DNA from: a virus
Reading direction: 5' to 3' (one strand)
Length of the DNA stretch: 64,000 nucleotides
Virus record (IMG/VR): IMGVR_UViG_3300007513_002297
Location: 7,272-71,271 of that record
This document shows positions 10,343-62,116 of the stretch, one piece after another. Every line of letters starts with the position of its first letter. Positions within the stretch are counted from its first letter, which is position 1. Under the pieces are notes generated by a model. That model was not told the origin of the DNA, ran no database searches, and saw nothing but the letters and a program-made list of their open reading frames with translations. The position numbers and the translations under genes are program-made.

Positions 10343-10350
10343 TCACATTT

Positions 10351-18948: not shown

Positions 18949-18950
18949 TA

Positions 18951-34233: not shown

Positions 34234-34602
34234 GTGGCAGGATTAGCTCCCAAATTACCACTGACGTATGATTCCGTCAATGGGTTTAGTTTAATAACAG
34301 GCTTTCGCGGGCTAGCTAAACAGAATTTTAAAATGCTGATTTTAACAATTCCAGGGGAGAGAGTAATGGATCCAAACTTTGGCGTAGGCATAACTCAGTT
34401 TCTATTTAATAATTTTCAAGCCGACACTTATATGCAAATAGATAGCAAAATCCGAGAACAGACCCGAACTTATATGCCTTTTATTGAAATTGTCGATATA
34501 TCTTTTGATTCTACGGGTCAAGACAAGAATTTGTTAGCACTCTCTATCAAATATGCTATTCCAAGAATTGGCGCGAGAGATTTGTTGGAATTCACTATTT
34601 AA
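34234..34602 (+). CDS. Baseplate wedge protein, gp25/GPW-like
   Basis: QN-x-K-x-LILT-x-PGERVMDPNFG signature; GAGGTG SD. Confidence 0.9.
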   Translation: MAGLAPKLPLTYDSVNGFSLITGFRGLAKQNFKMLILTIPGERVMDPNFGVGITQFLFNNFQADTYMQIDSKIREQTRTYMPFIEIVDISFDSTGQDKNLLALSIKYAIPRIGARDLLEFTI

Positions 34603-34617
34603 AATTGAGGATTTTTT

Positions 34618-36417
34618 ATGGCAGATGAACAAAAAAAGATAATTCCCATTGACTACACTCATCGCGAATTTGACAGCATTCGAGATGACCTAGTTGAGAT
34701 TGCTGAAAGGCTTTATCCTGACACGTTTCAAGACTTCAGTGAGGCGTCTTTCGGCGCAATGATGGTTGATGCTGTAGCCTATGTGGGCGATCAGCTTTCC
34801 TTTTATTTAGATTATAACATTAACGAAGCGTTTCTAGACACAGCGTTTCAATATAACAATGTAGTCCGCCACGGACGCATTATGGGCTATAAATATACCG
34901 GCCGCCCATCGACTTATGGCAAAGTGGCATTATTTATTAAAATTCCTGCTTCTTCAACGGGCTTAGGTCCGGACACTGCATATATCCCTATTATTAAGCG
35001 CGGCTCACGATTTACCTCAAACACGGGTTTAAACTTTGTACTGCTGGAAAATATAGACTTTGCGGCTCCCAAGAATACCACTGTTGTGGCTACGACGGAT
35101 TCTTCAACTGGCGCCCCCACTCATTTCGCCATTAAGGCATACGGCAACGTGGTTTCAGGACACTTTGGGCGAGAATTAGTGAGCGTAGGAGGATACGAGA
35201 GATTTAAAAGAGTTACTCTTAAGGCAGGAAATATTTCAGAGATTATTTCTGTGATGGACGGCGAAGGTCATGAGTATTTCGAAGTAGACTATCTAGCGCA
35301 GGATATGGTCTTTAAAGAGGTATCTAATAACAATTTTAAAAACGATAACGTTCCTTCTATCTTAAAGCCTTATTTGGTCTCGCGTAAGTTTGTGGTAGAA
35401 AAAAGCCGAGATCGCACATCTCTTCAGTTTGGAAGCGGAGATGCCGCCGCCTCCAATGTTGTGGCAGATCCTCAAAAAGTGGCATTAGATATTTTTGGAA
35501 AAGATTATGTAACAGACACTACGTTTGATCCCACCAAGCTTTCAAAGAATCGCAGTTATGGAATTGTTCCCACTAATACTTCTTTATCGGTAATATATCG
35601 AGTGACTAATCCTCTTGATTCTAACTTGGGAGTTGGAAATTTAAATAAAGTTTCCTCGGTTAAATTAGAGTTTGCCAACAAAGATGCATTACTGACGGCT
35701 ACCACGAACGATATCAATGCTTCAGTTGAAGTAAATAACGAAGAGCCAATTGTAGGCAGCGTAAGCAATCCCTCAACTAACGAACTTAAAAGAAGAATTT
35801 ATGATACCTTTCCCAGTCAAAATCGTGCAGTAACGCAGGCTGATTATGAGAATATTGCTTACAGAATGCCTGCAAAATTCGGCTCTATCAAACGTTGTTC
35901 GGTACAGCGCGATCCCGATTCAATGAAAAGAAACTTAAACATGTATGTGTTATCAGAAGATGAATTTGGAAAATATGTAGCCTCTAATGGTACCATTAAA
36001 AATAATTTAAAAACTTGGTTGAATCATTATAGAATGATTAATGACACTGTAGACATATTGGATGCTTATATTATTAATTTTGGAATTGACTTTGTTGTGA
36101 CGCCAAGCATTGGCGTTGACAAATATGACTTGTTGGCATCCTGCATTGCTCAACTAAAAAAGAAATTTGGAGGAGCCAAATATTACATCGGTGAACATTT
36201 AATGGTGACAGAGATTTATAGCGAATTAAACAAAGTAAAAGGAATTTTGGATGTGGTTAAAGTTACCGTCACCAATAAAAATGGAGGCGTATACTCGCAG
36301 ACTGAATTCGATATTAATTCAAATTATTCACCAGAAGGGACTTATATTATAGCTCCTAAAAATTGTATATTTGAGCTTAAGTATCCAGATACTGATATTA
36401 AAGGAAAAATTAGGTAA
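34618..36417 (+). CDS. Baseplate wedge protein, gp6/J-like
   Basis: DYT-x-R-x-F-x-SI, AYVGD-x-LSFYLD, FGSG, QNRAVT-x-x-DY. Confidence 0.88.
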   Translation: MADEQKKIIPIDYTHREFDSIRDDLVEIAERLYPDTFQDFSEASFGAMMVDAVAYVGDQLSFYLDYNINEAFLDTAFQYNNVVRHGRIMGYKYTGRPSTYGKVALFIKIPASSTGLGPDTAYIPIIKRGSRFTSNTGLNFVLLENIDFAAPKNTTVVATTDSSTGAPTHFAIKAYGNVVSGHFGRELVSVGGYERFKRVTLKAGNISEIISVMDGEGHEYFEVDYLAQDMVFKEVSNNNFKNDNVPSILKPYLVSRKFVVEKSRDRTSLQFGSGDAAASNVVADPQKVALDIFGKDYVTDTTFDPTKLSKNRSYGIVPTNTSLSVIYRVTNPLDSNLGVGNLNKVSSVKLEFANKDALLTATTNDINASVEVNNEEPIVGSVSNPSTNELKRRIYDTFPSQNRAVTQADYENIAYRMPAKFGSIKRCSVQRDPDSMKRNLNMYVLSEDEFGKYVASNGTIKNNLKTWLNHYRMINDTVDILDAYIINFGIDFVVTPSIGVDKYDLLASCIAQLKKKFGGAKYYIGEHLMVTEIYSELNKVKGILDVVKVTVTNKNGGVYSQTEFDINSNYSPEGTYIIAPKNCIFELKYPDTDIKGKIR

Positions 36418-38021
36418 TGGCTATAAAACGCTATACAGCTTCGGCCGACACCACAATTGTTAATGCTTTTCAGCCGAACATGCAAACGCGCGGCACGGGC
36501 GCCAATATGGGATATGCAGATGTTTTAGAAACTTTTTCTGTATATGGGCGACAAGCTACAGGATCCCAAGAGCTTTCTCGGATTCTCATTCAATTCCCGA
36601 TTAGTACTATTTCGGCTGATAGAACAGCCGGCACTATTCCTGCAAGTGGGAGTGTGACATTCTATTTGCGTATGTACAATGCGCCTCACTCTAAAACAGT
36701 GCCAGAAGATTTTACGTTATCGATTCTGCCTGTGGGTCAATCTTGGCAAGAAGGCGTCGGATTGGATTTAGAAACTTACAAGGATTTGACCAGAGGCAAC
36801 ACTGGTGCCAACTGGATGAGTGCGTCAAATACTGCACCGTGGACCGGTAGCAATTATACTAGTAATGATTGTGTCGGAGGTTCTTATCTCACAGGTTCTG
36901 GAGATCCCAATTTTAAAGTTGCATATGAAGGCGGCTTGTCTGATATAAAGCTCGACATCACACCGTTGGTTGAGCATTGGATGGCTGGCACTATTTCGAA
37001 TTATGGTGTAGGTGTGCACTTGTCTTCTAGTTATGAGGCTAGCGCATCCGTGGGCGCCAATACGGCTTCAGCACCAGTACTGCCGGTTACAGGTGGCGCC
37101 ACCAAATCTTATTTTACGAAGCGATTTTTCGCTCGTGGGACTCAATATTTTTTCAAGAAACCTGCGATTGAGGCTCGATGGGATTCGATAGTTAGAGATG
37201 ATCGAGGCGATTTCTGTTACAGTAGCTCGCTAGCTCCTCCCAGCGACAACATGAACACGCTTTATTTTTACAACTATATTCGCGGCGAACTTAGAAACAT
37301 TCCCGATTTGGGGAGCGATAATCGTGTTTACGTTAGCATGTTTTCCGGAAACGCTGCCAATACGGCTCCATCGGCATCGGCGCTATTGTTGGCAGCCGAC
37401 AATGAAGGTTATGTGCGCTCAGCGGCTCCAACAATTGTAACTGGCGGGCTGGTGTCCACTGGAATCTATAGTGCCTCATTTGCGCTGACAGCGGCATCCA
37501 CCCCTGTGACCACTCTTTATGATGTGTGGTTTACTGGGAGCAATGCGACAGTGGCTACTTCGTCCGCTACTCAATACTTCACGGGAACTGTGGCTCCACA
37601 AGTTGTTAAGCCTACCCAAACCGTTGCTAAGCCAGTTTATTATTTAAATATTACCAATTTAAAAGATAAATATCGTTCTAATGAAACTGCTCGATTTAAC
37701 TTATATATTAGAAATAAATTTTGGAGCCCCAACATTTACACGGTAGCTACCACCACACCAGAAAGCACCACCATCCACAGTGCTTCTTATAGGGTTTATA
37801 GAGTGATGGATGCTTATGAAGCGGTCCCATATCACACTGGTTCAGACTTGGCCACGGGTCTTTCTTATGATGTGTCTGGAAATTATTTTGATTTTGATAT
37901 GAATTTATTAGAGCCTGGATATGCATATGCATTTAAATTTGCTTTTTATGATCCTGCATTAAGTTCATGGACGGAGCAACCAGAAGTCTTCAAGTTCAGA
38001 GTAGAGAGTTATGAGTATTAA
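36417..38021 (+). CDS. Virion structural protein (DNRLRE-like N-terminal domain)
   Basis: A-x-ADTTI, SRILIQF, LDIT-x-LV-x-x-W, NYG pattern; S/T-rich. Confidence 0.6.
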   Translation: MAIKRYTASADTTIVNAFQPNMQTRGTGANMGYADVLETFSVYGRQATGSQELSRILIQFPISTISADRTAGTIPASGSVTFYLRMYNAPHSKTVPEDFTLSILPVGQSWQEGVGLDLETYKDLTRGNTGANWMSASNTAPWTGSNYTSNDCVGGSYLTGSGDPNFKVAYEGGLSDIKLDITPLVEHWMAGTISNYGVGVHLSSSYEASASVGANTASAPVLPVTGGATKSYFTKRFFARGTQYFFKKPAIEARWDSIVRDDRGDFCYSSSLAPPSDNMNTLYFYNYIRGELRNIPDLGSDNRVYVSMFSGNAANTAPSASALLLAADNEGYVRSAAPTIVTGGLVSTGIYSASFALTAASTPVTTLYDVWFTGSNATVATSSATQYFTGTVAPQVVKPTQTVAKPVYYLNITNLKDKYRSNETARFNLYIRNKFWSPNIYTVATTTPESTTIHSASYRVYRVMDAYEAVPYHTGSDLATGLSYDVSGNYFDFDMNLLEPGYAYAFKFAFYDPALSSWTEQPEVFKFRVESYEY

Positions 38022-41000
38022 AAAACTTTTTGATTCAACCAATAAAAGCAGAAATTATTTATCCGATACCGATCAAAAAGATGCTTTTGAGAGTGTAGAG
38101 TCGGCAAGAAATGCCCGCGCAATTAAAACCACTCAAGACACTTTCATCCCACAGGTAAATTATGAAAAGCCTGTAAATTTTGCTAAATACGGCTCGGCAT
38201 ATCTTTATTATAAATCTGCAATTGAAAGAATTCACGATTATTACCCATATGATGGGTCAGATGCAGAGATAAACGAATTCTATAATGGTTGTCTTCCTAT
38301 AGAACAATACCTTTTCGATAGTAAGTATCCGCGCACAACGGGGTACATTACGATGAGCGCTGGAGGGTGGGGATCTCGAACTAATGTGTTGGCTGCTAGC
38401 GGCGGCTATGGTTCATCAAGTGCTTCCGAGTATATTACTTTTTATGGCGGACCCAACACCATCACCCACACAAAGCTTCAGGATGTTTTTCCAAACCCAT
38501 ATGACGACAAATATCAATATTCCAACATATACGATACAGACATTTATACTACTGAAGGGCTTCCGACCACTTACGGTTCAGGCTCTCGCGAATCAAACCT
38601 TAAAAGCGATTTTGATAAAGGCGTAACTGTAGAGTTTTGGTTTAAAACTGGCTCGACTAATCCTGTGGCCACATATGCCAACAAAACTCAAAAAGAAGTA
38701 ATTTTTGATTTATGGAACAACGAGCTTAGCTCAAGTGCAGATTATGGACGTATTACTATTGGGATTAATTCCTATACGGCGTCTTCACCATTTTATGTAA
38801 CAGTGCAATCGGGGACTGCCGCTAGCTATAACGTTTCAGGGTGTTTTGAGCAAGCCATCGGTACGGGCTCGTGGACAGGTTCTTTCACAGATGATACTTA
38901 TTGTTTGTCATCATGGAAGCATTATGCCTTTTCAATGTTCAACTCTGGTAGTGATTTTCTTATTAAACTGCACGTAGATGGCGAATTAAAGGATACTTAC
39001 ACCTCTTCATCAATGACATTGGGAGCCCTCAACTCTAAAAACATGATGGGTCGTATTGGCGGACTCTTGACTGCTCCTTCGGGAACTATAGGATCCACCG
39101 GTTCTGGAAGCACTGCTGCCACAGTTAATGCCTTGTATGCTGGTGCCGGCAAACTAGAGGGAGCACTCGACGAATTTAGATTTTGGAAAGTACGCCGAAA
39201 CTCTAATGAAATTGCGCGATACTGGAAATCGCAAGTAAGAGGTGGCACAAACACAGATATTTCTAATACGACCTTAGGGGTCTATTATAAATTTAACGAG
39301 GGTATAACGACCGATACGACTACGGATAGCATCGTTTTAGACTACTCAGGTCGCGTAAGTAACGGCGCGTGGACCGGATACGTAGCTAGTTCGCGTAATA
39401 CAGGATCTGCGCTGGTTTCTTCTAGCGCGAGAACCGAAGAATATTTAGATCCCATTGTATATTCGACTCATCCTAGTGTTACTAGTTTAAAAACTGATTT
39501 GCTCAATAAGGGCGAAAAATACGATTTTACTAATAACTCTGCATTTGTAAATATGATGCCGTCTTGGGTACTGGAAGACGATGAAGGTTTAACAAGTGAT
39601 TTGAGAAAAATGTCTCACATTGTGGCCACATATTTAGACAAGTTAAGGCTTCAAATTGAAGCGGTACCGAGTTTTAAAGGAAGTATATACACCACAGCTT
39701 CAAGCGCTCCTCTTCCATTTGCTCAACACCTACCTCAATCTTTAGGGCTTTATACTCCCGATCTTTTTATTGATGCCACGGTAATGGAAAAGTTTTTAAA
39801 TCGCGATCAAGATACTTTCTTTGAAGGGGATTTAACAGAAACAAAAAACCTCATCTATCTCAATTTGTACAATAACCTTGCTAGTATCTATAAAGCTAAG
39901 GGCACGGAAAAGGCTATTAAAAATGTTTTTAGATGTTTTAATATGGACGATAAACTTCTTCGTTTAAAAACATATGCAAACAATCAAGTTTATGATTTAC
40001 AAGATAACCTTAAACAATATATTTATGAAGATACTGCTATCAATCATAATCTCGCTGCTAATATACAAGGTGTCGTATATCAGCGCAAAGAAGCTGGAGA
40101 TGCCAACTCTTTAGGATATATTTCGGGTACCTATGGTCGTACTGTGGAAGGCGGCTCGGCAGCAGTTCGCGAAGGAAATTATGGATTCACAGCTGAAGCC
40201 AGTATTGTCTTTCCTACTTTTGATATGCGCAGCGAGAATGCCCTAGTTAATCGCGAATTTTTAACTTCCTCTCTCTTTGGAATGCACACTATCATAACCA
40301 GTTCTAATACTTCAAAGTTGGGAACTGACACACGGTTTCCTTCGGGCTCTCAAGACTACGCAAACTTCCAAGTCTTGGCAATTCGCGATGAAAAGAATTC
40401 TAAAAATGTTAGATTTCAACTATCAGCATCTAATGATCCGTTTGCTGGGCAATTTACTGAACTCACAAGTAGTACTTTCTTTAATGTTTATGATAACGAA
40501 GAGTGGCACTTTTCTGTCAGAATGAAGCCGACCAATTATACTCTTACAAATATGGTTGATGGCTCAGGTGTTTATAGTTATATATTAGAGTTTAGAGGCG
40601 TTAATGCTGTTTTGGATACCATTCAAAATAGCTTTGTAGTGACCGCTTCTATTGGCAAGGATGCCGGTCAGAATTTTCTTCAATCGGCAAAAAGGTTATA
40701 TGCCGGCGCACGCAGAACAAACATCACTGGCGCCACACTGAATCCTAGTGATGTTTTGTTTGGAAGCATGAAATATTATGCCAAATATATAGAAGATGGC
40801 ACCCTGGATCAACACCTCTATAATGAAAGAAATGTTGGAGTTTCAGCTTCTTATCAGAACCTTTCCGCGTTAGATAGTAGCCTTACAGATGCAGATGTGC
40901 TTAATAGTAACACCTTAGCACTTAATTGGACTTTTGATAATATCACCTCTTCTAATGCTGCCGGCAATTTTGGATATGTACAAGATGTAAGTTCTGGCTC

Positions 41001-44000
41001 CTCGGGCCGCCGCAATGATCACTGGATTGGCGGCATTGCTGGATGGCAACACACTGGCTTTGGTTATGGATTTGCTACCAGTTCTGCTGATATAGTTAGT
41101 AAAGATCTTTATAACGCTTTGAAGTTTACCGATCCCGAAGAAGCAATATCTTCAACCATGGTACAGGTTTTAACAAATGACGATATCGTATATGGAGTCA
41201 CAGAGCCTCCACCAACCTTTTTTCACTCTATAGAAAAGAGCATGTATAATGCCATTTCTGAAGAAATGTTATTATTCTTTGCTGGCGCTATTGATTTTCA
41301 TAATATTATCGGAGAGCCTGTTAATCGTTATCGCGAGAGATATAAGGTATTAGAAAAGCTAAGACAAACGTTTTTCCGAAGAGTTACTACTGTTTCGACT
41401 GTTGAGAAGTTTATTGATTATTATAAATGGTTTGATGATGCCATGGCTCTTATCGTTGGGCAGTTGTTGCCCGCATCGGCAGAGCTTGTAGAAGATGTCG
41501 CAGAAGTGGTCGAAAGCCACGTTTTAGAGCGCAACAAATACAAGACTCCGTTTCCTACTATAGAGTTTGTAGAGCCAGAGCCGGAGCCGGCTTCTATGCT
41601 TGGTGTCTCTTTCTTGAAGACAAGGTTTGAACTTATAAGTTCTCCCACACCCTCCTCGCCTCGTGCCACCAACATTAGAGAAGAATTTTGGAAAGTCCGC
41701 GCCCTACGCGATTCGCAGGATCTTTCGAGTAGTGTCGCGCGCGTAAATGTAGATAGACAAATTATAGCAAATCAAGCCAACGTCACAAGCGACACTAGTG
41801 CTAGTAATTTTAGGACTCGAGATGGAACCAAATATCAAAGGACGAACTTTTTTCAACGACATCGCTCTCTTCCATATCAAATTACAGCCGACCTAATAGA
41901 CACCAAATTATCATCCGAGGACCCTCTTGAGGATCAATACGTTTCTTACGAATATCAAGGTGGAACAAACTTTTCAGAGCCTCGCCCAAAATTGGATTAT
42001 TTTTATCACGCAACGCGCCCTGCAGGCGCCATTAACCGAACGCATGGCGCCTATGTTCCTGTAAATGTATTGCTAGCACCAATGGCTGAATTGGTGCCGT
42101 GGACTGAGATTGAACTTAATCCCGCTAATAGGATCTCCGGAAGCAAAGAAAAAAGACATTTTAAGCTTTGGTATGGTCCCGATTGGGATGGCGGCTATGG
42201 CCCCAATAATGTAAAAAATAGTATTGGATTTCCTTTTAATATTATGAGTTCAAGCGTGAGCGGAGGCTATAATAAACAGATTGTAGAAAATTTGGGAACA
42301 TCCATGGAGTTGACCAATTTACACCATGACGTATATGGACCCGAAATGGAAAGACCAATGCAGGGACCGTTTACAGAGGCTGTAGTAGGAGGGCACCAGT
42401 CTCGACATGTGGCACTCAATGATGGCACAGATGCTTGGTATAATCGACCTGAAGCTTGGAAGATTCTTTTGGGCACATGCGACACAATTAAAGGTGTCGC
42501 CGGCGCAATTGGGGTTGTCGGCGCCGATTATCCATGGCCAGAATCCAATGGTGAGGGCATAAACCCTTATCCACTGACGGGCGCCCAAAAAGCTGTATAT
42601 TATCGAGGATTTACAGCCAAGAGTCCAGTTAACATCCGCAACATACACCTCACAGGAAGCGCATTAGGAAACTATAGTCAAAATTATGAAGTTGTATGCA
42701 CGTTTGGAGGGTATGTCAATCCACGCCAATTCGTGGAAAATCCTCCCACTCTTCCCACAGAGCTTACCCAAACGCCTTCTGGTACACAGGCGCGCTCTTT
42801 CTTGGGGATTCGTAGGACCGATAACTCTCATTTTGATTTTGTGCCCGACTATTCTGTCGGATATTTGACAGCTTCTACTGGTAAGTCGGTTATACTCAAC
42901 CATTTTGCTGCACCAGGCAGCATAGAGACCATGGGCGTTGGATATAAAGATGTGCGAGCCTCTGAGTTTTCTGCCTACATTCCTTGCACTTATAGAAATT
43001 GGTCTGTCCGGCGCCCCTTCCAAAATATGTCCTCTAGTGTGGTTTCGGAAGCAACAGGATCCGGGACGCCTGGAATTAGAGTTTCAGATGTCAATGGTTT
43101 AGATCTCGGGTGGGATTACAATACGATGGCGCACTCTGCGCAATTTGGACGAAGCAGCATTATATATCCGCCAGACGCCCAGAGAACTGCCTATGATTTA
43201 GCTATTAATTTTATGGGTTACAGCGAGACTGAGATTTACCGTTCGTCGCAGTATTTGCAGGGTTGGTGGAGATTCAGAACGCTCGAGCCAGGAGGCGCTG
43301 GCTGGGGAGTTGATAGTAGCGACAAAGGACGCACAGGAACATTTCCTACGGCTGCGGACAAGCCCACATATTCCGGGTCTCTCGGACCTTCGAAATACGT
43401 TCAAACATCTAGTGCTGGATGGGACGGCGGCGCCGAACGCATGAACATTGGAACAGCAGCCACTTGGGATGCACTCATAGGCGATGCTGCCGGCAGTACC
43501 AAGCAGATGACATTCGCGGCTTGGGTCTATAAAACTGGCGACGGCGGCGGCACCTATGGTCGCATAATTGATTTTGGCTCCGGCGATGTGCGATTCTATA
43601 CGAATAATGTGGAGTCTATCTATTTTGACGTTACTGCTTGGACTGGAGCAAATGCTCAATGGCATGTAGGTCAAGCCTTTTCATTAAACACTTGGACCCA
43701 TATTGCAGTAACGTACGATGCCGGCAGTACCGCCAACGAACCTGTCATATATGTCAACGGTGTGGCTCAGACAGTTACAGAGGACACGGCTCCACTCGGC
43801 ACTTATGGCGGCATTGACACCGATGCATGTTTTGTTGCGAATAATTTCGATGCAAATCGAGGATTCGAAGGTCAGTTGTGCGATATGGGGGTTTGGAATT
43901 CGATCTTAACAGCAGAGGATGTGAAGGCTATCTATAACCAGAGCAAACTACCGAGTAAAGTAGGACCCGGAGCCATCAATGTTCAGCGCCCCAGCATGTA

Positions 44001-47000
44001 CAAGGTTAATCGTAATCCACGCATGCGCCTGAAGCCGATAGGTTATACACACACAGATGGAGTGGAGACGATCACCTATATGACGGCGTCTTCTTATGAT
44101 AATTTCTATGTTCAACATCAAATTCCGAGAGCAGACAGACAATATGCATGGGTAACAGCCAGTATAGTGGATGCTGGAGACTTTAGATACCATGGCATGG
44201 CACAAGTTGGTGGACCGCTTGCCGGCTACTACTCTAGTTCGGCCGAAGGATACACTGCTTATTTCAACTTTATGAGCGCTAGCAGTGTTTTAGGAAAGAT
44301 CGGCGGTGGCGCCGACATGCCTATTTACCAACCGGCAAACCGTTTGAATATTTACGTCATAGATCCAGTTAACCTTTCTACTAATACCCTCGGACTTCTC
44401 CCTGCTCAATCAGTCACTAGTTCTTATAACACGTTATTGTTGGACGAGTACAACAGCACGCCTTATGCTTTAAATTTGAGCGCCGATTATCTTAACTTGT
44501 TGTTAACCCAGAGGCGAAGTACTTTTGAGGATCGACACATTCCATTTATGTCTCCTGTTAAGAATCACATACTTCAAAAACACGCACAGCAGTCTCAAAT
44601 AACTCTTGATGATGGGCGAGATAATTTACAAATTTATCCGTTTAAAGTTGCATCTATGAGAGGAAGACCGGTGTACATTAACATGAGTGCGAACGATCTT
44701 GATGCCACCTATTGCTTTACATGGAACAATGAACTGCTTTATTGCAGTGATCAGACTCTAAATCAAAAATTAGATGTGAGAGGGGATAAAACAACTATTT
44801 TTGATAAAACAATTGAAGTGGCAGATGCATCAAATGTTTTTGATATTAATTGGATCTTATATTCCGAAATGATGTTCCCCTCGCGAGTAAAGGAATTCAC
44901 ATCAGCATCCGCCGAACGCCCTAATTATGATAATAAGTTTTGGAGAACGAGCGCTACAGATAGGCTTTCGCTTGGGTCGTTTCCAGACCGAACCCCCCAG
45001 CCTCGGTGGTATAATTTGAACGGTCCAGATTGGAACTCAACGCCGTCTTATTCTTATTCTTATATTGGACAATCTTCACTTCAAGGCTGGTGGCGACTGA
45101 ACCAGAGTGTAGCCGACGGCGGCGATTTTGTAGATAGTTCTACCCACAGTAGAAACGGCACCAGTTCCGCCGGCGGAACACCAGCGCAATCTACAACTCT
45201 TTATCCATCAAAATATATTCAAACTGCTAGCTGTACTTTTGATGCTAGCGATGATGCAATCAATATTGGCACTGCAGCCTTATGGGACGACATTATTGGC
45301 AATGATACCGCCGCCGGCTCTACAGAATTAATGACATTTTCAGCATGGATTTATAAAACTGGCGACGGCGGCAGCAGTCTCGGTCGTATATTCGATTTTG
45401 GTCTTGGCGACCTTGCGATATATACTACTGCTACGGAAAAGATTTATTTCAATGTGAAATGGACGGATACGGGGGGAGCAGGCACCAACGGCATCGCGTA
45501 TTGGACCACACCTGATAATCCTTTTACTCTTGAGACTTGGACCCACATAGCTATTACTTACGATGCTACCAGCACATCTAATAATCCTATAATTTATGTT
45601 AACGGAGAGGTGGTGGCACTAACAGAAGATGAAGCCCCTGTCGGAGATTATTACGGATTTGTTTCTCAAGATTGTTTTATAGGAAATCGTGCCGGCGTCG
45701 ACCGAGCTTTCGAAGGTCAAATAGCAGATGTTGCCATATGGAACTCGGTGTTATCTTCCGTGGAGATTAAAGCTCTCTATAACGCAAAAACAGGCGTTTA
45801 CCCCAGAGGTACTAATTCATTTGGTATACCCGTCTCACAAAGCTCATGGCCACTAGATGCGCCTATTGACTTTTTAACGCGAACTGCGGTGCCCTATATA
45901 ACACCGATAGACTATTCTTTGGTTTATTCAAATAGTGCCGGCGAATTACAAAATACATATGTACAAATAGTAAGTGGAAATACTCCCCGTGGATTTGCGG
46001 CCGCTCCTGCCCTTGCTGTTGGCGGTTTATTGGCTCGAAAACATACCATAGCCACTGCGCGTAGTGTGGTTTCGCCCTCTTCTGGCAAACAGATTTCAGC
46101 AACCGGGACCATGGATTATAAAGCGCCTGGTCCTTCGGGCGCCTATAACCAAAGGTTGGCACATCAACTATATGCCGGCGAATCTGAATGGCAAGCCGGC
46201 ACTCAAGCAGGAATTATCGTTAAAAGCGGTAATGGACCGGATGCTGTTTCGATCTTTGAATCCCATTCTTCGGCTCCATTCTATTATAATTCTTATGCTG
46301 ATTTTATAGATGAAATAAGAACAGTGGCAAAAGATTATGCCATTGTGCCAGAATTTAGAATTAGCGAACACGTTGATGAGTATCTTAAATACGGAATTTC
46401 AGCCAATAATAAATTTGATTGGGCTGAAATTCCGGGAGCTTATACTGATAGTGGACACCCCGTCGATAGTTCTCAGCCCGGATTCTATAAAGATTACTCA
46501 AATTCAGAGTTTGCACATCACTTCTTGACATTAAAGAATAAAACTCTCACAGAACCAGTAGAAATTATGTTGGAAGTGAATGCTGCAATTCGGTATAATC
46601 CTTATAAAGGATTTTATCCACAACAACGCACATTGGATTTAATAACTCAGTTTTCAAAATCATTTGGCACAAGCCTTATGTCGACTAACCTGGCGGGCAC
46701 CCCTGTCCAACAGCGAAACGGCTGTCTTCGACCCTTAGCACAAGCATTGTTTGCGCCTGGAGTGTTGTATAACACTATTAAATCTGGGCTGGCTGTAGAC
46801 TATCCTGTTGTGATAGATGAAACTAAGGTTAGTCGCCACAATGCTTATGGATATACAACAGCATCCAACGGCAGCGCTAACGTCGGAAGTACAGGATTAG
46901 CTAGTACTGATATTTGGATGATTACTTCCACCGGCTCTTTAATTCCTCCGCTGCCTAATGCGGTTGCTGTAGAAGGGTACGACGGGGGACAATTTTGGGA

Positions 47001-49197: not shown

Positions 49198-49200
49198 ACC

Positions 49201-50607
49201 ATGGCAAAATTTATTAACAAAAAAGAACAAGTATATGACCTTAAGTTAACCTCTTATGGTCATCACTTGCTGTCTATTGGAGAATTCAGTCCATCTTATT
49301 ATGCCTTCTATGATGATAATGTGATTTATGATATAAGGTATGCGTATGAGGGACTCGAGGCGCATGCCACATATACACAGGTGGATGTAAATCCGCCGGC
49401 CATGGACGGCAAGACATTAGTATTGGAAGACGCGTCTGGTGTTACCCACACTGCCACATTTTCAAATGCTGTAGGCACCACAACATCGACAACGATTTAT
49501 TTTCAGGAGTGGGACTTTGATCTTGCAAGAATAGCCAGAGAAGTAAGAAAATCAATCAATTTGGCAAACACAGAAGGATTAATAGGAATCTCTGCTAGCG
49601 ACTATCTGGGCGCCGCCCAACATATCCTTTTGGCAATGGATACACCCGGGACAACTGGCAATGGAAAAACAATAGGAGGAACACTCTTCAGCGCCGCCGC
49701 TGGAAACGCTACGGTCACTCCTTTCTTGGGAGGGCAATATCCCGAAAACCAAAACAACGTAGACAATCGAATCAAAAATGAAACTGCTTATTTGGAAAGT
49801 TTAGTGTTGTTCGAAGATATTGATGATGCTGTAGCGGGTAATTCAGGAGAATCTATAGATCCTTTAAGTGCAGAACTTACATGGGTGCAGCGCCTTCCTC
49901 GTAAAGATATTTTTAAAATGAATGCGGCTATTGGTGATGCTTATTTAGATGGCAAAACTAATGCAGCCCCAGCATGGAAGATAGTGGCACTTCAAAGCAG
50001 AATTAGCTCTTCTGCGCGAAAAGATGTTCGCAACGAAATAGAGGTTCCACAGCTTAATGTTGTTGCAAATTATCGTACTAAGATTGTAGAATCAGAATTT
50101 GAGTTTAATCCATCTACAGTGCGTGAAATAAACGATCAGACACTTACTTTTATAGATGATAAAAGAATTGTATTGGAAGCTGATGATCCGGTGTTTTATA
50201 TTGAAGAGATTAATACAGAACTTTTAATGGAGAATTTTGAAATAGAAGTGTTTGGATATGTGACTTCTGGTTCTAATGTGTCGGGGCCGGCTACTGGCTC
50301 CCAACAAGATACCTTGGAGCGGAAGTATTTTCGAAAAGATATACCTCAAATTGTAGATGGATTTTTGGTATCCAATGTTAAAGAAACCATGGCAGTCGAA
50401 GAGATAACTACTGGAAGCGTGGAATACTATTTTGATGTTTTAACTGATCAAAACATTGAACAAGAATTGGCATGCCGAGGAGCCGAATCTTTTAATAAGG
50501 GATCTTATTACATTGATTTAGACTTTGATTGCGATAAACAAAAAGATGAAGATATATTTTATGATATTTATGGATCAGTAACGGAGCCCGAGATATGTCA
50601 GGATTAG
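49201..50607 (+). CDS. Virion structural protein
   Basis: N-terminal LT-x-x-G...G-x-F...A-x-x-DD-x-x-x-Y shared with the 58606 protein. Confidence 0.65.
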   Translation: MAKFINKKEQVYDLKLTSYGHHLLSIGEFSPSYYAFYDDNVIYDIRYAYEGLEAHATYTQVDVNPPAMDGKTLVLEDASGVTHTATFSNAVGTTTSTTIYFQEWDFDLARIAREVRKSINLANTEGLIGISASDYLGAAQHILLAMDTPGTTGNGKTIGGTLFSAAAGNATVTPFLGGQYPENQNNVDNRIKNETAYLESLVLFEDIDDAVAGNSGESIDPLSAELTWVQRLPRKDIFKMNAAIGDAYLDGKTNAAPAWKIVALQSRISSSARKDVRNEIEVPQLNVVANYRTKIVESEFEFNPSTVREINDQTLTFIDDKRIVLEADDPVFYIEEINTELLMENFEIEVFGYVTSGSNVSGPATGSQQDTLERKYFRKDIPQIVDGFLVSNVKETMAVEEITTGSVEYYFDVLTDQNIEQELACRGAESFNKGSYYIDLDFDCDKQKDEDIFYDIYGSVTEPEICQD

Positions 50608-53678: not shown

Positions 53679-53707
53679 CTACAACTTTATAATAAGGAGA
53701 ACATAAA

Positions 53708-54691: not shown

Positions 54692-54740
54692 GAATGATAA
54701 AAATATTCACCAAAAGAATAATTAGGAAAGGAGATAAGTA

Positions 54741-55592: not shown

Positions 55593-55594
55593 AG

Positions 55595-58567
55595 ATGGCA
55601 GAATATGATCATATTCAAGCACAGATAATCGATTCAGATTTATTTTCGGGTTCTGTTGATTCTTTCCGCACAGCATTCGGCGGCTATTATACCACTGTAG
55701 ATGTGGAAGCTACCGATGAAAATGATGCCGGTACAGCATTAGAATTTGTGGATCCGATCTCCGACTCCGAGTATTGGCACCCAGACTTCGACGGGCACGG
55801 AGGCCTCGAACCTTATGAACTTAAAGCCGTTTTAGACCTTGATTTGATAGAGACAATTGATGAAGAAGTTTTAGTTGCTAATAGAAAAATGCCCATGAGA
55901 GTTTATAGCGATTCTGATTTAATAGTAAGTGATATTTTTTGGAAAACGTTGTGGATAGGAGGAGAATTTGACGAAGTATCTTATTCTCCCATTTTTAATG
56001 AAACAATTCACAGCTATTATACTGCCGATTATGACCTTCCATATCCTCAGATTGAAGCGAATGCCTTTTCTTCGGAAGATATTGCGAATGTTATAGAAAT
56101 TTCGTATGATTATAGTGCTTATTTGCCTCAATATCAAAATTATATCTCTAAACTTGATTCGGAATTGCTAATTCCTAGCTATTATTTAATGTATAATGTT
56201 GTTGCCAATGAGCATGATTTAAGTGACGCTGATGGTGCTCAACTACTCTATAGTGATAATTTGATAAACTATATAACTGCTGAAGGATCCTATCCGGATA
56301 TTCTCAACTTTTTTGATTTTAACGAATCCACTATTCCAGATGGTTTTGAACTAAGTGATTATGATGATAAGGCGGCAATGTTAGAAGCAGCCGGCATAGG
56401 CACAGATTTTGTTACACGCAACAGCTATCTTGCCACAGATTTTTTAACAGCTTCTTATATACAAACTCCCCTTTCAGCCTCTACTGTCGAGTGGGCAAAA
56501 GATAGAATGCAAAATTTGCTTTTTGATAAAGATGCAGTTGGCGATCTTTTTGCGGGAGGCACTGAGTTTAGCACGAATGCTGCAATGTTGCCTTATAAGA
56601 TTAAAATAAATTTTAACGAATATGAGGGAAGCTCCGGAGAGTTTAGCAGCGATTCTTCAACAACGATTTTTGCAGACTCAATTAGGGAGAACAACTTTTC
56701 TTCTAAGTTTATAAAAACTCTTTATCAAGCGTTTGGGAACAAAGTAGAAGAACTTGCACCAAATGAGGTATCTTATGTCACTAGTTTAAATTATTCTTCA
56801 GCATCTCTTGAAGACGAAATAGAATATACAAACAGTACTGCCAATAGTGTTTCCTATCGGGAAATTGATTATGTGAACTTTTTGGCTTATTGTTATAATA
56901 ATTATATTTCTTCCGAAGAGGGATGTTTGTTGGTAGGTCCCAAAACATTAGAAAGATTAAGTGCTATCGACACTGACGGAACTTATCGCCATTTTAACAC
57001 TAAAGCAGCACTAGGCACTTTGACTGATGCTGTTGAATATTTAGCTAACACCACCAACATAAGTATTGAAAGTTTGAATGACATTTATACTAATTCTACC
57101 ACGTATATTGAGCCGGTGGCATACCGTGTTGAAAAGATCGGAGGACCACCAACCGGAGACTCATTCACACAAAACACGCTTCAGAATTTTTGGTTCTTTA
57201 AGCCCGAGCCGCCCGATTTTGATACAGGCGCCACTTTTACTTTTTATGATAACCAAGTAAAATATGATACAGACTATACATATAAAGTTTATGCATATGC
57301 GCTGATGGTGGGATATCGATATAAATTTTCTGATTTAGCTCTTACAAGACAAATTGGGTGCGAAGGAGTCGACGGCGAATATGGCTTAGAGTTTTATGAT
57401 CCATATTCAGATGATGAAGGAACTACTTCGCGTTTGTATGAGGGAAGTGCCACCGACAATACTTTGGTTAGCGAATATAGCAACGTTGTCACTCAGACTT
57501 CGGTAGCACTCATAGAAGAGTTTGATACTTTAGAAGCAGCCGAACTCGCCGGCGGATATTTTGTCGGACTCGGAGACGACGAAACTGTATATTCTTATAC
57601 TATAACGGAGAACTATAATGAAAGTGATGGACTTTTTGATGGCACCCGCACACTTACTGTCATCAAGTCAGAAACAATCACAACTGCAGGAAGTGAGTAT
57701 GGGACAGATGCTCAAATTTTCTCTACAGCCCCTTATGTGGCCGATTTTTATTTAAATTATGAACCTACCATTAAATTGGTAGAAATACCGCTTTATGAAA
57801 AGACTCTTAAAGTGATGGATAATCCGACAAACAAATTAAGTGTCGTGCCCTACCAAGTCATAGGAGACTCTCAGCAAATTGGTTTTGATTTTGTATATAC
57901 TTCTTTTGTTGAAAATACTTTTCCTTCTGTCATTGATGATGCCGACGAGGAATACAAAGAGTCATATATAAGCGCCAATGATTTATTTGAAAATTCATAT
58001 ATAGAATTTGAAAGCATTGCAAAGCAACGATATGTCGAAGTGTATAGATTATCATCACGCCCAACTGCTATAACAGACTTTAAAGGCGCAAAAATCGCAG
58101 AAATTGATTTAGCAATAGAAGATCTTTCTCAATATAGCTACAAAGGTGCTTTTTATGATGATACAATAAAAACAAATCAGAAATATTATTATCTTTTTCG
58201 AATTCTAAATCAACAGCGCGTCTTATCACATTTAACTGAAATAACTGAAGCAGAACTAATTAATGATGGAGGCTATAAATATACTGTTTTCAATACTTTA
58301 TATGAATATGAATTAGAACAAGAAGTTTTCAACAACCCAACCGAAGAATTTAAAAAACTAATTCAATTACAGCCCAATCTTGATCAATTAATGTTTAACA
58401 CAGATGATATCGATTATAATGAGGCGGCCGCCACCCAAATAGGCAACTTGGTCGTTGGAGCTTCTGAAGATTCTATCTGGGATAAAACGTTTAAAGTACG
58501 CTTAACTTCCAAAAAGACAAGTAGAAAAATTGATCTAAACATTACTTATAGATTGAACAGCGATTAA
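55595..58567 (+). CDS. Acidic virion protein (990 aa), possibly with FN3-like segments
   Basis: FYDNQVKYDTDYTYKVYA and FYDDTIKTNQKYYYLFR FN3-like strands. Confidence 0.65.
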   Translation: MAEYDHIQAQIIDSDLFSGSVDSFRTAFGGYYTTVDVEATDENDAGTALEFVDPISDSEYWHPDFDGHGGLEPYELKAVLDLDLIETIDEEVLVANRKMPMRVYSDSDLIVSDIFWKTLWIGGEFDEVSYSPIFNETIHSYYTADYDLPYPQIEANAFSSEDIANVIEISYDYSAYLPQYQNYISKLDSELLIPSYYLMYNVVANEHDLSDADGAQLLYSDNLINYITAEGSYPDILNFFDFNESTIPDGFELSDYDDKAAMLEAAGIGTDFVTRNSYLATDFLTASYIQTPLSASTVEWAKDRMQNLLFDKDAVGDLFAGGTEFSTNAAMLPYKIKINFNEYEGSSGEFSSDSSTTIFADSIRENNFSSKFIKTLYQAFGNKVEELAPNEVSYVTSLNYSSASLEDEIEYTNSTANSVSYREIDYVNFLAYCYNNYISSEEGCLLVGPKTLERLSAIDTDGTYRHFNTKAALGTLTDAVEYLANTTNISIESLNDIYTNSTTYIEPVAYRVEKIGGPPTGDSFTQNTLQNFWFFKPEPPDFDTGATFTFYDNQVKYDTDYTYKVYAYALMVGYRYKFSDLALTRQIGCEGVDGEYGLEFYDPYSDDEGTTSRLYEGSATDNTLVSEYSNVVTQTSVALIEEFDTLEAAELAGGYFVGLGDDETVYSYTITENYNESDGLFDGTRTLTVIKSETITTAGSEYGTDAQIFSTAPYVADFYLNYEPTIKLVEIPLYEKTLKVMDNPTNKLSVVPYQVIGDSQQIGFDFVYTSFVENTFPSVIDDADEEYKESYISANDLFENSYIEFESIAKQRYVEVYRLSSRPTAITDFKGAKIAEIDLAIEDLSQYSYKGAFYDDTIKTNQKYYYLFRILNQQRVLSHLTEITEAELINDGGYKYTVFNTLYEYELEQEVFNNPTEEFKKLIQLQPNLDQLMFNTDDIDYNEAAATQIGNLVVGASEDSIWDKTFKVRLTSKKTSRKIDLNITYRLNSD

Positions 58568-58605
58568 ACAAAATTATAACTATTTACGAGAAGAGAGGTA
58601 CATAA

Positions 58606-59601
58606 ATGGCTTTTTTAGATAACTCAGGAGACATCATTTTAGATGCCATCTTGACTGAGACCGGAAGGCGCCGCATGGCACAAGGCACCTTTAAAATTAC
58701 AAAGTTTGCCGTAGGGGACGATGAAATTGATTATTCCCTATACAACAAGGACGCTAGTGGGGGTCCCGCTTATTATGATTTGGAGATTCTACAGACTCCA
58801 ATTGCAGAAGCAGGATTGCAGCTTAATTATGGATTAATTGGAAGTTTAACGTCCGATATTCTTTATATGCCTGTGACCCGAATTAACGAAAAAAATTTGG
58901 AGCTTACTAATATTCAGAGTAACGGTGGAATGTTTTACGTAACAGATACCAGCGGCGATCAAACTGACGGCGCCATTGGTGACGCTCTTACAACGGCTGG
59001 TGTAGGGTATATGAAAGGGGCAGCAGTCGCTAATGCCAACTGCGTGCTTCTTGAGACTGGGCTCGATGTGGCTTTTGGAGAAGTTCCACTTGGAACAAAG
59101 CCCAATCAGTTGTCTTATCTGATTGCTAATGATCTTGTAAATAAAACATTCTATGTTTTTTCGGATAGTAGATTTTTTGGCGGAATGCAAGGATTGAGTC
59201 CCCGGGCTAACTTTGCCAACAATGGACCCAATAACGAGATCTCAGCCCAACTGACCTTAACCATGGCTAGCCGTACAAATATTGGAATCGGATTAGATAA
59301 TTATAAAGGCGCCCGAGTTCTGGGCATCAATAATGAAATTTACTATTATGGCAGCGGCGTCAACACTGAAGCAAATTATTCTGTTTTGGGTGGACCCCGC
59401 AGCAAGATTGTGGCAGTTTCTCCGCGAGTTAAGTCCGGACTTGGACCAGAGTATACTTTATATGGGTTTACGAACCAAGCCAGTGTGGCTGGAATAACGG
59501 CTTTCAATGTGGATTATATTGATACCACCATATATGTCGTTGGAGCAACTACGGGCACGTCAGCGCAGATTCCTGTGCGAATTATTAGACGAACTGTTTA
59601 A
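58606..59601 (+). CDS. Tail/baseplate structural protein
   Basis: ILTETGRRRMAQG-x-FKITKFAVGD resembles tail-collar fibre N-termini. Confidence 0.65.
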   Translation: MAFLDNSGDIILDAILTETGRRRMAQGTFKITKFAVGDDEIDYSLYNKDASGGPAYYDLEILQTPIAEAGLQLNYGLIGSLTSDILYMPVTRINEKNLELTNIQSNGGMFYVTDTSGDQTDGAIGDALTTAGVGYMKGAAVANANCVLLETGLDVAFGEVPLGTKPNQLSYLIANDLVNKTFYVFSDSRFFGGMQGLSPRANFANNGPNNEISAQLTLTMASRTNIGIGLDNYKGARVLGINNEIYYYGSGVNTEANYSVLGGPRSKIVAVSPRVKSGLGPEYTLYGFTNQASVAGITAFNVDYIDTTIYVVGATTGTSAQIPVRIIRRTV

Positions 59602-59622
59602 AATATTATTTGGAGAAATTAA

Positions 59623-60720
59623 ATGGCAGTAATTAACTATAAGAACTTGAACACATCAACTGATGTAGTATCAAGTAGGACCATCTTGCATGAGGCAATT
59701 CCTCTAACGGGAACAATCATTAGTGGGACATATGGAGTTTTTCCAAATGAAGACAATATTAAGAATTTCACCCATGGGCTTTTTCAGAGTGTGTATGATT
59801 ATCCTTATTTAAGTTCTTCTGCTAACCACATTTTTGATTTAACAATCGGATATTCTGCTGACTCCACTGTGAGTGGTGCCGCTTCTTCTGGTTCGAACAC
59901 AGGACTCCAAACATCACGAAAGATTAACATGTACAATCAGATGTCACATGTGCTATTGGGCATTACAGGTTCTTCTTCCGATATTCGAAAGTTTGAAACT
60001 GATTTAACTTTAGACAATTCTGATCCTATGAAAGAATGCGTGTTCATTGACATGTCACGACTTATCACCAAGGATCAAATTAAGAAAGGCACATTTAGCA
60101 TTACATTGGCAACTGGATCTTGGGCTGACGTTGGCGACGGAGGACCGGGCCCAGGCGGCAAAGTCAGAACTTTGACTGACGCTAGCGCTTCTGCGGTCGG
60201 AGGAACTGCTAATACGTTAGGGGGAGACTATGGAGTACTCCTAGATAGCAACTCTGTAGGAATGGGGATTGTGTTTTATGAAGCTGGCATTGTTGCCCTT
60301 CATACGGGAGCTTTCTGCAGTAGCTTATCTGGTGCAAGCAATGGTACTTGGTATAAGACCCCTGCAGGAACCGGTCTTACCATCGGTGCAGCCTTTGCAT
60401 CCTCTTCCATTAGTGGAAACTGTGACGCAGTAAGACACCGTCTGTCGAACATTTCTTATAATAACTCTGTAGAAATCAACTCTACAATTTACTTCTGCCG
60501 CCTGCCAACAAACATGTTTAACTACAGCGCTAATCCGACCTATTTGAGTGCTAGTCAAATTCGTGTAAAGAGTGTGGCAACCGATGATCCGGTTTCATAT
60601 GTAACAACTATAGGACTATATAATGCGTCGAACGAGCTATTGGCCGTTGCCAAGCTGTCTGAACCGTTGAAGAAGAGCCCTACGACAGAGCTTACGTTGC
60701 GTGTTAGATTAGACTACTAA
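59623..60720 (+). CDS. Tail/baseplate structural protein
   Basis: C-terminal YVTTIGLYN...LLAVAKLSEPLKK...RLDY. Confidence 0.65.
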   Translation: MAVINYKNLNTSTDVVSSRTILHEAIPLTGTIISGTYGVFPNEDNIKNFTHGLFQSVYDYPYLSSSANHIFDLTIGYSADSTVSGAASSGSNTGLQTSRKINMYNQMSHVLLGITGSSSDIRKFETDLTLDNSDPMKECVFIDMSRLITKDQIKKGTFSITLATGSWADVGDGGPGPGGKVRTLTDASASAVGGTANTLGGDYGVLLDSNSVGMGIVFYEAGIVALHTGAFCSSLSGASNGTWYKTPAGTGLTIGAAFASSSISGNCDAVRHRLSNISYNNSVEINSTIYFCRLPTNMFNYSANPTYLSASQIRVKSVATDDPVSYVTTIGLYNASNELLAVAKLSEPLKKSPTTELTLRVRLDY

Positions 60721-60721
60721 T

Positions 60722-62116
60722 ATGTCGTTAAAAAAGTTCGGCAAAAACGATGTCCTTGTCAACACGATGCGAACTTATCCTAAGAGTGAGTTCCTAATTT
60801 ATGACAGCAAGGTATACTATAACAATGTCCCTAACCAGTCTGGCTCCAAAAACCAATACGTAAGAAACGTTCCTCCAGGCTACATCAGCTTGTATGAGTA
60901 TAATATTGATCGCCAGTATGTAGACACCGGCCGCGATATTTCAACATCTGGCTTGGGCTTTGACGCTTCAGATGGCGTTCACGAAGCCAGCGCATCAGTC
61001 GCAGATACCGGCAGGATTTATGCGTGGACAAACAAAGGTAGTGATTACTATAACCTTACAACCGTGAGCCAAGAGGCTTATGATCTTACTCCTACTGATG
61101 ATATTTTAACGGCTACATATCCTTTCTCGGCGTCTATAACTCGTGAATTGATGGGAATAGATGGAGGAAGTATTACTGCTGGAAGCACAGCCGAAATTGA
61201 CGTTACAGAAGAAATTTCAGGCGAAGACGTACCGGTGGGTACTGATATTACACCATACTATCGTCATTATTTTGCTTTAAAGAATACCTTAGATCATAAT
61301 GGAATACAAAGTGTAAACTATAGAATTATAGGAACTTCTTCTGCGACATCCAATTGGAACAAAGCAGATCAAATAATCAATATGATATCGATACCTAAAA
61401 TCTTTTATGGGTCTCGTATCAAACCCGGCTCTCTTTCGTTAAAGTGGTATGTCACAGGAACGTTGGCTGGCGAGCTTCAAGATGCTCGACAAAATGGAGA
61501 GTTGAGGCAGGTAGCAAACTCGAGCGAGCATTCAACCGCTTATGATGATGAGTGTGCTGGTGTTGTATTATATAAAGAAGGCTTTATTTTGTTGACAGGT
61601 TCGTGGTCTTTAGATCCTGCTGCTATGGCTTTGAGCAGTAGTGGTGGTGAAGATCCCTCGTGGATTTATTTTGGTGCCGGTGCTGCCGATGGTCCATCTG
61701 CCGATCCTCCACACGGTGGCAGTAACTCTCGAGACACAGGGGTCGACGTGTCTACAAACGCATCTTTTAAGCTTTCGTTTCAGGGCGAAACAGAGACTCA
61801 AGTCATGACCATGTTCTCTCGTGCTGGTCGCGGCAAGGCTAATTTCTCTAATAATCCTACATATTTAACTTATGGACAAAGCAACTTGCAAGCGACTTCC
61901 TCTCGATTTTATGAAGAGAATCCCAACAGAACCATTTATAATTCGGTAAGCTCGAGTTATCCCGATTATGAAGCTCCTTTTAAAAAACAGGTATATGTTT
62001 CGCGAGTGGCAATTTACGATGACAAGAAAAACCTTTTGGGAATTGCAACACTTGCGAACCCGGTGCTTAAAAGAGAAGATCAAGATATAACCTTTAAACT
62101 ACGACTCGATCTGTAG
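60722..62116 (+). CDS. Tail/baseplate structural protein, paralog of 59623
   Basis: Shares IK-x-G-S/T, G-x-V-x-Y-x-x-G, N-x-S-x-NPTY and the C-terminal LLGIATLANPVLK...RLDL. Confidence 0.65.
   Translation: MSLKKFGKNDVLVNTMRTYPKSEFLIYDSKVYYNNVPNQSGSKNQYVRNVPPGYISLYEYNIDRQYVDTGRDISTSGLGFDASDGVHEASASVADTGRIYAWTNKGSDYYNLTTVSQEAYDLTPTDDILTATYPFSASITRELMGIDGGSITAGSTAEIDVTEEISGEDVPVGTDITPYYRHYFALKNTLDHNGIQSVNYRIIGTSSATSNWNKADQIINMISIPKIFYGSRIKPGSLSLKWYVTGTLAGELQDARQNGELRQVANSSEHSTAYDDECAGVVLYKEGFILLTGSWSLDPAAMALSSSGGEDPSWIYFGAGAADGPSADPPHGGSNSRDTGVDVSTNASFKLSFQGETETQVMTMFSRAGRGKANFSNNPTYLTYGQSNLQATSSRFYEENPNRTIYNSVSSSYPDYEAPFKKQVYVSRVAIYDDKKNLLGIATLANPVLKREDQDITFKLRLDL

Follow-up and report, generated by a model that had tools for sequence, protein, structure and literature searches.

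Serine-rich repeat adhesins receive O-linked N-acetylglucosamine from GtfA/GtfB, a pair made of a catalytic glycosyltransferase of family 4 (GT4) and a non-catalytic partner of GT-B fold, at Ser-x-Ser acceptors with a small middle residue, and the general O-glycosylation sequon of Bacteroidota is D-[S/T]-[A/I/L/V/M/T]. The heptosyltransferases TibC and AAH are described in passages of PMC4358343 as modifying serines, not threonines, of TibA and AIDA-I, in peptides that contain ..NSGG.. and ..TSAA..; for phages, an excerpt of PMC12619734 places glycans at the C-termini of the capsid and tail tube subunits of mycobacteriophages, whose virion glycosylation study is also cited in a section of PMC12801897. 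Here we describe a tripeptide, [ST][GA]S, in the tail proteins encoded by a 64,000-nucleotide stretch of viral DNA (hereafter the window; bases 7272-71271 of the 71,271-base IMG/VR record IMGVR_UViG_3300007513_002297, whose completeness is judged to be 38%). In six outer tail proteins it stands about fourfold over expectation, an excess that is confirmed as genuine, and it is a candidate acceptor for glycosyltransferases encoded by the phage itself, as an initial annotation of the DNA had proposed.

Measured against a composition expectation from 2000 shuffles per open reading frame (ORF), the 534-aa protein of the baseplate module carries 13 copies of [ST][GA]S where 2.0 are expected (z 8.0) and the 3728-aa giant protein carries 39 where 10.1 are expected (z 9.4); the remaining four, of 468, 990, 365 and 464 aa, hold four or five copies each (Table 1). 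Pooled, the six proteins (6549 aa) contain 69 copies, against 17.3 ± 3.8 under global shuffling, 21.2 ± 4.2 when residues are shuffled locally in 20-residue stretches (300 shuffles) and 32.3 under a first-order Markov null (p 1.4e-8). The 3728-aa protein is the only one that is individually strong under the Markov null (17.1 expected, p 4e-6), the 534-aa (p 0.017) and 990-aa (p 0.04) proteins being marginal and the 468-, 365- and 464-aa proteins individually not significant. As a pattern, the motif is confined to virion proteins and absent from enzymes, with 2 copies against 5.5 expected in the 25 ORFs of the left half (52-23272; 7701 aa). Five further putative virion ORFs (599, 1027, 327, 283 and 331 aa) have none, and the 2266-aa protein (27404-34204) has 5 copies against 2.4 expected. 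These five all fall within residues 1078-1451.

Residue order matters, and serine is needed at position 3. Across the six proteins the permuted motifs [GA][ST]S (24 vs 17.5 expected) and [ST]S[GA] (27 vs 17.8) lie near expectation; no enrichment is seen with Thr, Gly, Ala, Asn or Asp at position 3 ([ST][GA]T, 20 vs 15; [ST][GA]G, 14 vs 14) or with Asn, Asp, Gly, Ala or an aliphatic residue at position 1 (N[GA]S, 3 vs 5.5). S[GA][ST], which overlaps SGS and SAS, reaches 47 vs 17, and [ST]SS is likewise in excess (29 vs 11). When all 8000 tripeptides are scanned without bias over all 12 putative virion proteins (11382 aa in total), TGS takes the top rank (22 copies vs 5.7 expected, p 1.8e-7), followed by SAS (22 vs 6.9). 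Hydrophobic residues are preferred at positions -1 (p 3e-5) and -2 of the window sites, so that the pattern is [ST][GA]S after hydrophobic residues and does not match the Bacteroidota sequon (D[GA]S, 7 vs 6.0). Because the 69 sites are encoded by 59 distinct 9-mers, the copies are not DNA repeats. On these points the initial annotation holds: its hand counts of 13 and about 38 were correct, the proteins starting at 49201, 55595, 59623 and 60722 do carry several copies each (4, 4, 5 and 4), the motif is rare in the enzymes, its copies are dispersed with varied codons, and the comparison with shuffled proteins and permuted motifs that it had proposed leaves the enrichment standing.

Metagenomes contain more than 3800 homologues of the 534-aa protein. 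Each of 50 aligned homologues (58-85% identity) carries 8-17 copies against 1.9 expected; certain sites are near-fixed (49 of the 50 sequences), swaps at a site remain within the class (SGS/TGS/SAS/TSS; SAS/SCS), and extra sites occur at columns where the window protein has none. The excess in this family is 6.8-fold in conserved and 3.7-fold in variable regions, and 145 of 150 family representatives (38-58% identity) show at least a 2-fold excess, with a median of 4.7-fold. These comparisons indicate a pattern maintained by selection at the level of the protein, across a large family and unrelated virion folds. The family profile found no solved relative; an AlphaFold2 model of the 534-aa protein (predicted local distance difference test, pLDDT, 67; predicted template modeling score 0.46) consists of tandem beta-sandwiches with Ig/FN3/CBM-like fold matches. 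None of the 13 sites falls in a helix, two lie within strands, five at strand ends and six in loops, and on this model surface exposure of the sites is plausible.

The window is part of the genome of an uncultured marine 'Far-T4' myovirus (the group name follows an excerpt of PMC7198788). A complete relative of 203 kb, G001, has as its nearest cultured phages by capsid protein Flavobacterium phage immuto, Microcystis phage Mel-JY01 and Rhodothermus phage RM378, and this capsid affinity is combined with a T4-type baseplate with gp25- and gp6-like genes, as in the Far-T4 (RM378) group. Close cultured relatives were not found, since neither 36417-49197 (megablast) nor the 534-aa protein (tblastn) has a match among 50,697 phage records.

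Relatives extend the pattern beyond the outer tail, to which the initial annotation had too narrowly restricted it: capsid, sheath and head-module proteins are also in excess. The orthologues of the tail proteins in G001 again carry an excess, which extends to the major capsid protein (5 copies, 1.4 expected), an adaptor (5 copies, 0.8 expected), a 727-aa protein (9 copies, 3.3 expected) and a 256-aa head-module protein of no family (126188-126958; L089:6188-6958), which with 13 copies against 2.0 expected is the densest case in the marine clade. Orthologous capsid and sheath proteins pooled from G001, immuto, RM378 and Mel-JY01 have 37 copies against 13.9 expected, the share of RM378 being small; those from LR756508, LR756511, the pelagiphage HTVC008M, the cyanophage S-SSM7 and T4 have 9 against 10.3. 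Sheath sites lie in the N-terminal two thirds, which by T4 gp18 we take to be the outer part, and their columns mostly differ from lineage to lineage. Most genomes have 0-1 copies in portal, terminase, prohead protease and gp6-like proteins; the maximum is 3, in the portal homologue of LR756508, and none of these proteins is in excess. A 1053-aa protein of immuto annotated 'tail spike protein' (MW353176, 97614-100775; L105-L106) has 53 copies against 12 expected, many of them at 6- or 9-residue spacing in [ST]AS[F/Y] arrays. These arrays recall serine-rich repeat adhesins.

All long ORFs of the window are on the + strand. Its left half (52-23272) encodes a PD-(D/E)XK nuclease, two adjacent GT4s and about 22 sugar-pathway or transferase genes, and a baseplate and tail module of myovirus type starts at 27404 with the 2266-aa protein, followed by the gp25-like and gp6-like proteins and then by large proteins of no family (Table 1). 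A 384-aa protein with a C-terminal Amidase_2 domain (25267-26421) lies 5' of the tail module and an Hsp20-family small heat-shock protein (62782-63267) lies 3' of it.

Table 1. Positions of the main features within the window, with motif counts and family assignments.
Feature	Position	Strand	Remarks
GT4 glycosyltransferase no. 1	833..2119	+	PF00534, 46 bits; E-x7-E = E295..E303; conserved across the clade
GT4 glycosyltransferase no. 2	2095..3372	+	PF00534, 25.7 bits, just below cut-off; E-x7-E = E286..E294
Variable glycan island, 22 ORFs	3249..23272	+	Family matches to sugar-pathway and transferase genes
gp25-like and gp6-like inner baseplate wedge proteins	34234..36417	+	0 motif copies; start of the tail module
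534-aa baseplate-module protein	36417..38021	+	Directly after the gp6-like gene; tandem beta-sandwich domains; 13 copies
3728-aa giant structural protein	38011..49197	+	Laminin_G_3 and pentaxin-like domains (Pfam); 39 copies
468-aa structural protein	49201..50607	+	4 copies vs 0.6 expected
990-aa structural protein	55595..58567	+	4 copies vs 1.7 expected
365-aa structural protein	59623..60720	+	5 copies vs 1.8 expected; orthologues in immuto, RM378, Mel-JY01, LR756508
464-aa structural protein	60722..62116	+	4 copies vs 1.4 expected

The last 25 nt of GT4 no. 1 also form the start of GT4 no. 2, and no. 1 lies directly 5' of no. 2 in 22 of the 22 loci that have both flanks (33 loci found), with E-x7-E retained in both enzymes (22 sequences each). 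The closest solved relative of no. 1 is chlorovirus B736L (E 3.6e-7); no. 2 has an extra C-terminal part in 8 of the 22 loci, and that of G001 resembles GT2. The glycosyltransferases encoded in the window comprise, by Pfam, these two GT4, two Glyco_trans_1_2 and one GT2. Besides the latter three, the island that follows the pair contains a sulfotransferase-like gene, a thiamine pyrophosphate (TPP) enzyme, PanB, epimerases/dehydratases, DegT/RfbH-like and MptE/Maf-like genes, NeuB, a PseF-like cytidylyltransferase, methyltransferases and a GDP-mannose dehydratase. In relatives its slot is filled by different genes, which include sulfo-, methyl-, pyruvyl- and LicD-type transferases; the smallest island (G022, 6.3 kb; motif ratio 2.88) holds a GT4-GT2 fusion, a LicD-like gene, methyl-, pyruvyl- and sulfotransferases, an APS kinase and a cytidylyltransferase. 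GT2 was rejected as a common island gene: the contig G006, which lacks the motif excess, has a GT2 elsewhere, and RM378 has a sub-threshold match only.

Three island loci merit mention in their own right. The 287-aa ORF 13425-14288 matches PF01973 (MptE/Maf-like) at 33.8 bits, under the cut-off of 34.6, and lies directly 5' of NeuB (14452) and the PseF-like gene (15354), the layout of the nonulosonic-acid (Maf-type) islands of flagellins; it has no PDB or NCBIfam match and no blastp orthologue in ten compared genomes. An acetolactate-synthase-type TPP enzyme, PanB (330 bits) and a class IV aminotransferase (7621-10342 and 16034-17005) are odd members of a glycan cluster, where their product may be a branched decoration of acyl or amino-acid type. 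Finally, a 323-aa ORF of no family (3249-4220) shares 123 nt with the end of GT4 no. 2, which some relatives have instead as a fusion with an extra domain (554-710 aa); this ORF has no similarity to the one after GT4 no. 2 in G010, a complete, island-bearing relative with four ORFs at p<1e-3.

Across nine compared genomes, the motif excess is found only in phages with the adjacent GT4 pair. Orthologues of GT4 no. 1 occur in 7 of 50,697 phage records, namely immuto (4 records), Mel-JY01, RM378 and LR756508; GT4 no. 2 is present in the first three phages and absent from LR756508 and LR756511. Taken as the observed over the expected genome-wide motif count, the ratio is 1.86 in G001 (4 ORFs at p<1e-3), 2.09 in immuto (3 ORFs), 2.26 in RM378 (2 ORFs) and 2.27 in Mel-JY01 (7 ORFs), all of which have the pair, and no ORF reaches this threshold in LR756508 (GT4 no. 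1 only; 1.36) or in LR756511 (1.14), HTVC008M (1.38), S-SSM7 (1.06) and T4 (0.66, from 70-169 kb only), which have neither GT4 of the pair. The hydrophobic preference at -1 and +3 is likewise restricted to pair-bearing phages. GT4 no. 1 by itself was rejected as the reader of the motif, LR756508 having this gene without the excess. In that uncultured 484-kb genome, GT4 no. 1 stands beside homologues of NeuB, the cytidylyltransferase and the GDP-mannose dehydratase (305-327 kb; L165-L166). The hosts of the motif-bearing cultured phages, Flavobacterium, Rhodothermus and Microcystis, span three phyla, which makes a phage-encoded reader more likely than a host one.

One branch of the clade has lost motif and island together. 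Contig G006 (103.8 kb) encodes a representative of the 534-aa family without a single copy (P0238), and G007 encodes a relative that is 70% identical to it; besides the nuclease, both contigs retain GT4 no. 1 and GT4 no. 2, each with E-x7-E intact, and are without the entire island (window 3249-23272). G006 as a whole has 33 copies against 43.5 expected, its 4146-aa giant protein 2 against 5.0, and only 1 of 69 aligned motif sites is retained over six orthologue pairs between the window and G006, so the folds do not need the motif. No tripeptide stands out in G006 as a replacement sequon (best p 1.5e-4 among 8000). Counts on G006 (L317-L322) are below the composition expectation for TGS (0 vs 2.8) and TAS (0 vs 2.7); this deficit could mean that the motif was actively removed and did not simply decay. 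Of the 10 sites of the 534-aa protein that can be aligned with its G006 orthologue, 6 have a charged residue there in place of position 1.

The same division runs through 26 relatives that all have GT4 no. 2 (two further loci were dropped, having no ORF at the expected place), among which the spacing between GT4 no. 2 and the 534-like gene is bimodal. In 18 island-bearing contigs it is 18.3-37.5 kb, with motif ratios of 2.9-5.3 (pooled, 953 copies vs 229.7 expected); in 8 island-less contigs it is 11.8-15.4 kb, with ratios of 0.46-1.87 (118 vs 98.7). The slot of the island-less G038 holds only an 84-aa zinc-ribbon ORF; G029, likewise island-less and 80% complete, has a ratio of 1.30 and 0 ORFs at p<1e-3, and its giant protein keeps 17 copies against 8.35 expected. 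The island-less clade also has lower Ser and Thr content. The only genes found to be lost along with the motif are the island genes, an AAA protein, an amidase, Dam and unknowns (with G029 being 80% complete), and the island is the sole glycan-related element found missing together with it. A tree of the gp6-like protein (30 rows, quick IQ-TREE) unites the eight island-less contigs in a single clade (SH-aLRT 87) nested among island-bearing contigs, with immuto and Mel-JY01 outside. Sufficiency of the GT4 pair is refuted by these eight contigs: in this sample the pair is necessary, not sufficient.

Taken together, the motif is selected and dispensable for folding, and it depends on a factor that the phage encodes elsewhere. 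Its best reading, to which we give an even chance, is that phage enzymes recognise it as an acceptor for O-glycosylation. Hydrophobic-[Ser/Thr]-[Gly/Ala(/Ser)]-Ser would then be a selected surface tag on exposed virion proteins of the Far-T4 clade, on the outer baseplate and fibre and, in relatives, also on sheath, capsid and head-module proteins. Soluble phage glycosyltransferases would O-glycosylate the tag serine on virion proteins inside the infected cell, the conserved adjacent GT4 pair being the constant part of the machinery and the swappable downstream island supplying and elaborating the sugars. We infer a glycosyltransferase as the reader, the position-3 serine as the acceptor, an enzyme that starts the chain, and exposure of the sites. 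What the initial annotation proposed, an acceptor motif for the phage glycosyltransferases that ties the two halves of the window into one system, is supported in part: the pattern is under protein-level selection and tied to glycan genes, the excess occurs only with the pair, and it is gone from the orthologous tail proteins of the island-less branch. The pair by itself is not enough.

Several observations weigh against glycosylation as the function of the motif. The reading is drawn from sequences. One change suffices on the gp6-like tree, so the disappearance of motif and island counts as one co-loss, not eight, and because the motif-bearing phages are one lineage by capsid similarity, shared descent confounds the co-occurrence of motif and pair. 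The island-less clade keeps the GT4 pair without motif excess (E-x7-E being intact in the two members checked, G006 and G007), so the pair is not sufficient and may have another function; conversely, RM378 has the excess and no sugar island was found beside its GT4 pair, and no island gene is common to all motif-bearing phages. At the sites themselves, the conservation of motif residues in the 534-aa family exceeds that of other Ser/Thr only weakly (p 0.04-0.08), and 5 of the 13 sites of the 534-aa protein, all of them in loops, lie in stretches of pLDDT <50 in a mediocre model. Over the six G006 pairs, charged replacements are as frequent at motif positions (25%) as at other Ser/Thr (25%), and position 1 became hydrophobic more often (29% vs 15%).

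An unlikely alternative is that the tripeptide is a structural or physicochemical device of beta-rich proteins, such as a Ser/Thr turn at a strand edge, with no covalent modification, and that its loss reflects a shift of composition or environment. The location of the sites, which in the beta-sandwich domains occupy loops or the edges of strands, the hydrophobic residues that flank the motif at -1 and +3, the fibre-like 6- and 9-residue arrays of the immuto tail spike, the lower Ser/Thr content of the island-less clade and the single event of co-loss would all be compatible with such a device. However, the G006 orthologues do without nearly all of the sites, the excess spans folds as unrelated as the HK97-type capsid, the sheath and the beta-sandwich baseplate, the capsid and sheath proteins of T4, the cyanophage, the pelagiphage and LR756508 show no excess, and sites turn over among lineages while their density is retained.

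We regard it as similarly improbable that the tag is read by something else, be it a kinase, an acyl- or phosphotransferase, a host enzyme or the non-covalent binding of island glycans, with the glycan genes acting on the host surface or on phage DNA. The persistence of the GT4 pair without the motif and the varied transferases in the islands of relatives fit this scheme, and a preprint on 7-deazaguanine DNA modifications mentions immuto. Against it, no kinase or other protein-modifying enzyme tracks the motif distribution among the compared genomes, the three host phyla speak against a host enzyme, and, of glycan-related elements, only the island was lost along with the motif. That the excess merely follows from a local composition rich in Ser/Thr/Gly/Ala or from common descent, the motif itself being under no selection, is very improbable: the dipeptides AS, GS, TA and SS are each enriched about 1.3-fold and the three small proteins fall short individually under the Markov null, but this explanation already fails the shuffle, Markov and permutation controls, since 2.1- to 3.3-fold remains under local shuffles and the Markov null, permuted motifs of the same composition are not enriched, and the excess is present in variable regions and in non-homologous proteins.

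Returning to O-glycosylation, a wider form of the proposal is somewhat less probable than its core: that the Far-T4 clade, marine and freshwater and abundant, runs a sequon-directed, cytoplasmic system of general O-glycosylation, in which hydrophobic-[S/T]-[G/A]-S on every exposed virion protein is read by conserved phage glycosyltransferases, the swapping island gives each phage a different sugar coat, and one branch dropped the island, whereupon the code decayed. If the proposal holds, this code would be the first of its kind for protein glycosylation in a phage; it would span dozens of sites on each virion protein of a clade that is abundant worldwide, and it would provide a target for the puzzling 'glycan islands' of large marine phages; a sugar coat could affect host recognition, resistance to grazing and enzymes, and the stickiness of particles at sea. 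We found no published description of the motif in the literature on phage virion glycosylation, glycosyltransferases of marine myoviruses, Far-T4, immuto, Mel-JY01 and RM378. The latter three, as cultured members, allow a direct test, for which the motif defines the exact peptides.

Among known systems, GtfA/GtfB resembles the present case in being an adjacent pair of GT-B fold with SAS-like acceptors, which the SAS[F/Y] arrays of the immuto tail spike also recall; it differs in that the window sites are dispersed and not arranged in long repeats. A catalytic and non-catalytic pair of this kind was rejected, since both phage GT4s keep E-x7-E and neither looks like a non-catalytic partner; the GtfA/GtfB models of NCBIfam have no match at E <= 0.01, with weak, far sub-threshold SdgA/SdgB among 21 generic GT4 matches. 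With TibC/AAH, the proposed system would share a soluble cytoplasmic enzyme that acts on many serines of a beta-rich surface protein (as described in passages of PMC4358343), whereas the enzymes of the window are GT4, GT2 and Glyco_trans_1_2, with no heptosyltransferase-family domain among its 46 proteins (Pfam, E <= 0.001), and the targets would be phage virion proteins. A further parallel is the virion O-glycosylation of mycobacteriophages (Freeman et al. 2023, Cell Host Microbe, as cited in PMC12619734 and PMC12801897), where, as here, the phages have their own glycosyltransferases and their own virion proteins are the proposed targets; in the window and its relatives these targets would instead be marked by a dispersed tripeptide on many proteins and served by a large, swappable island.

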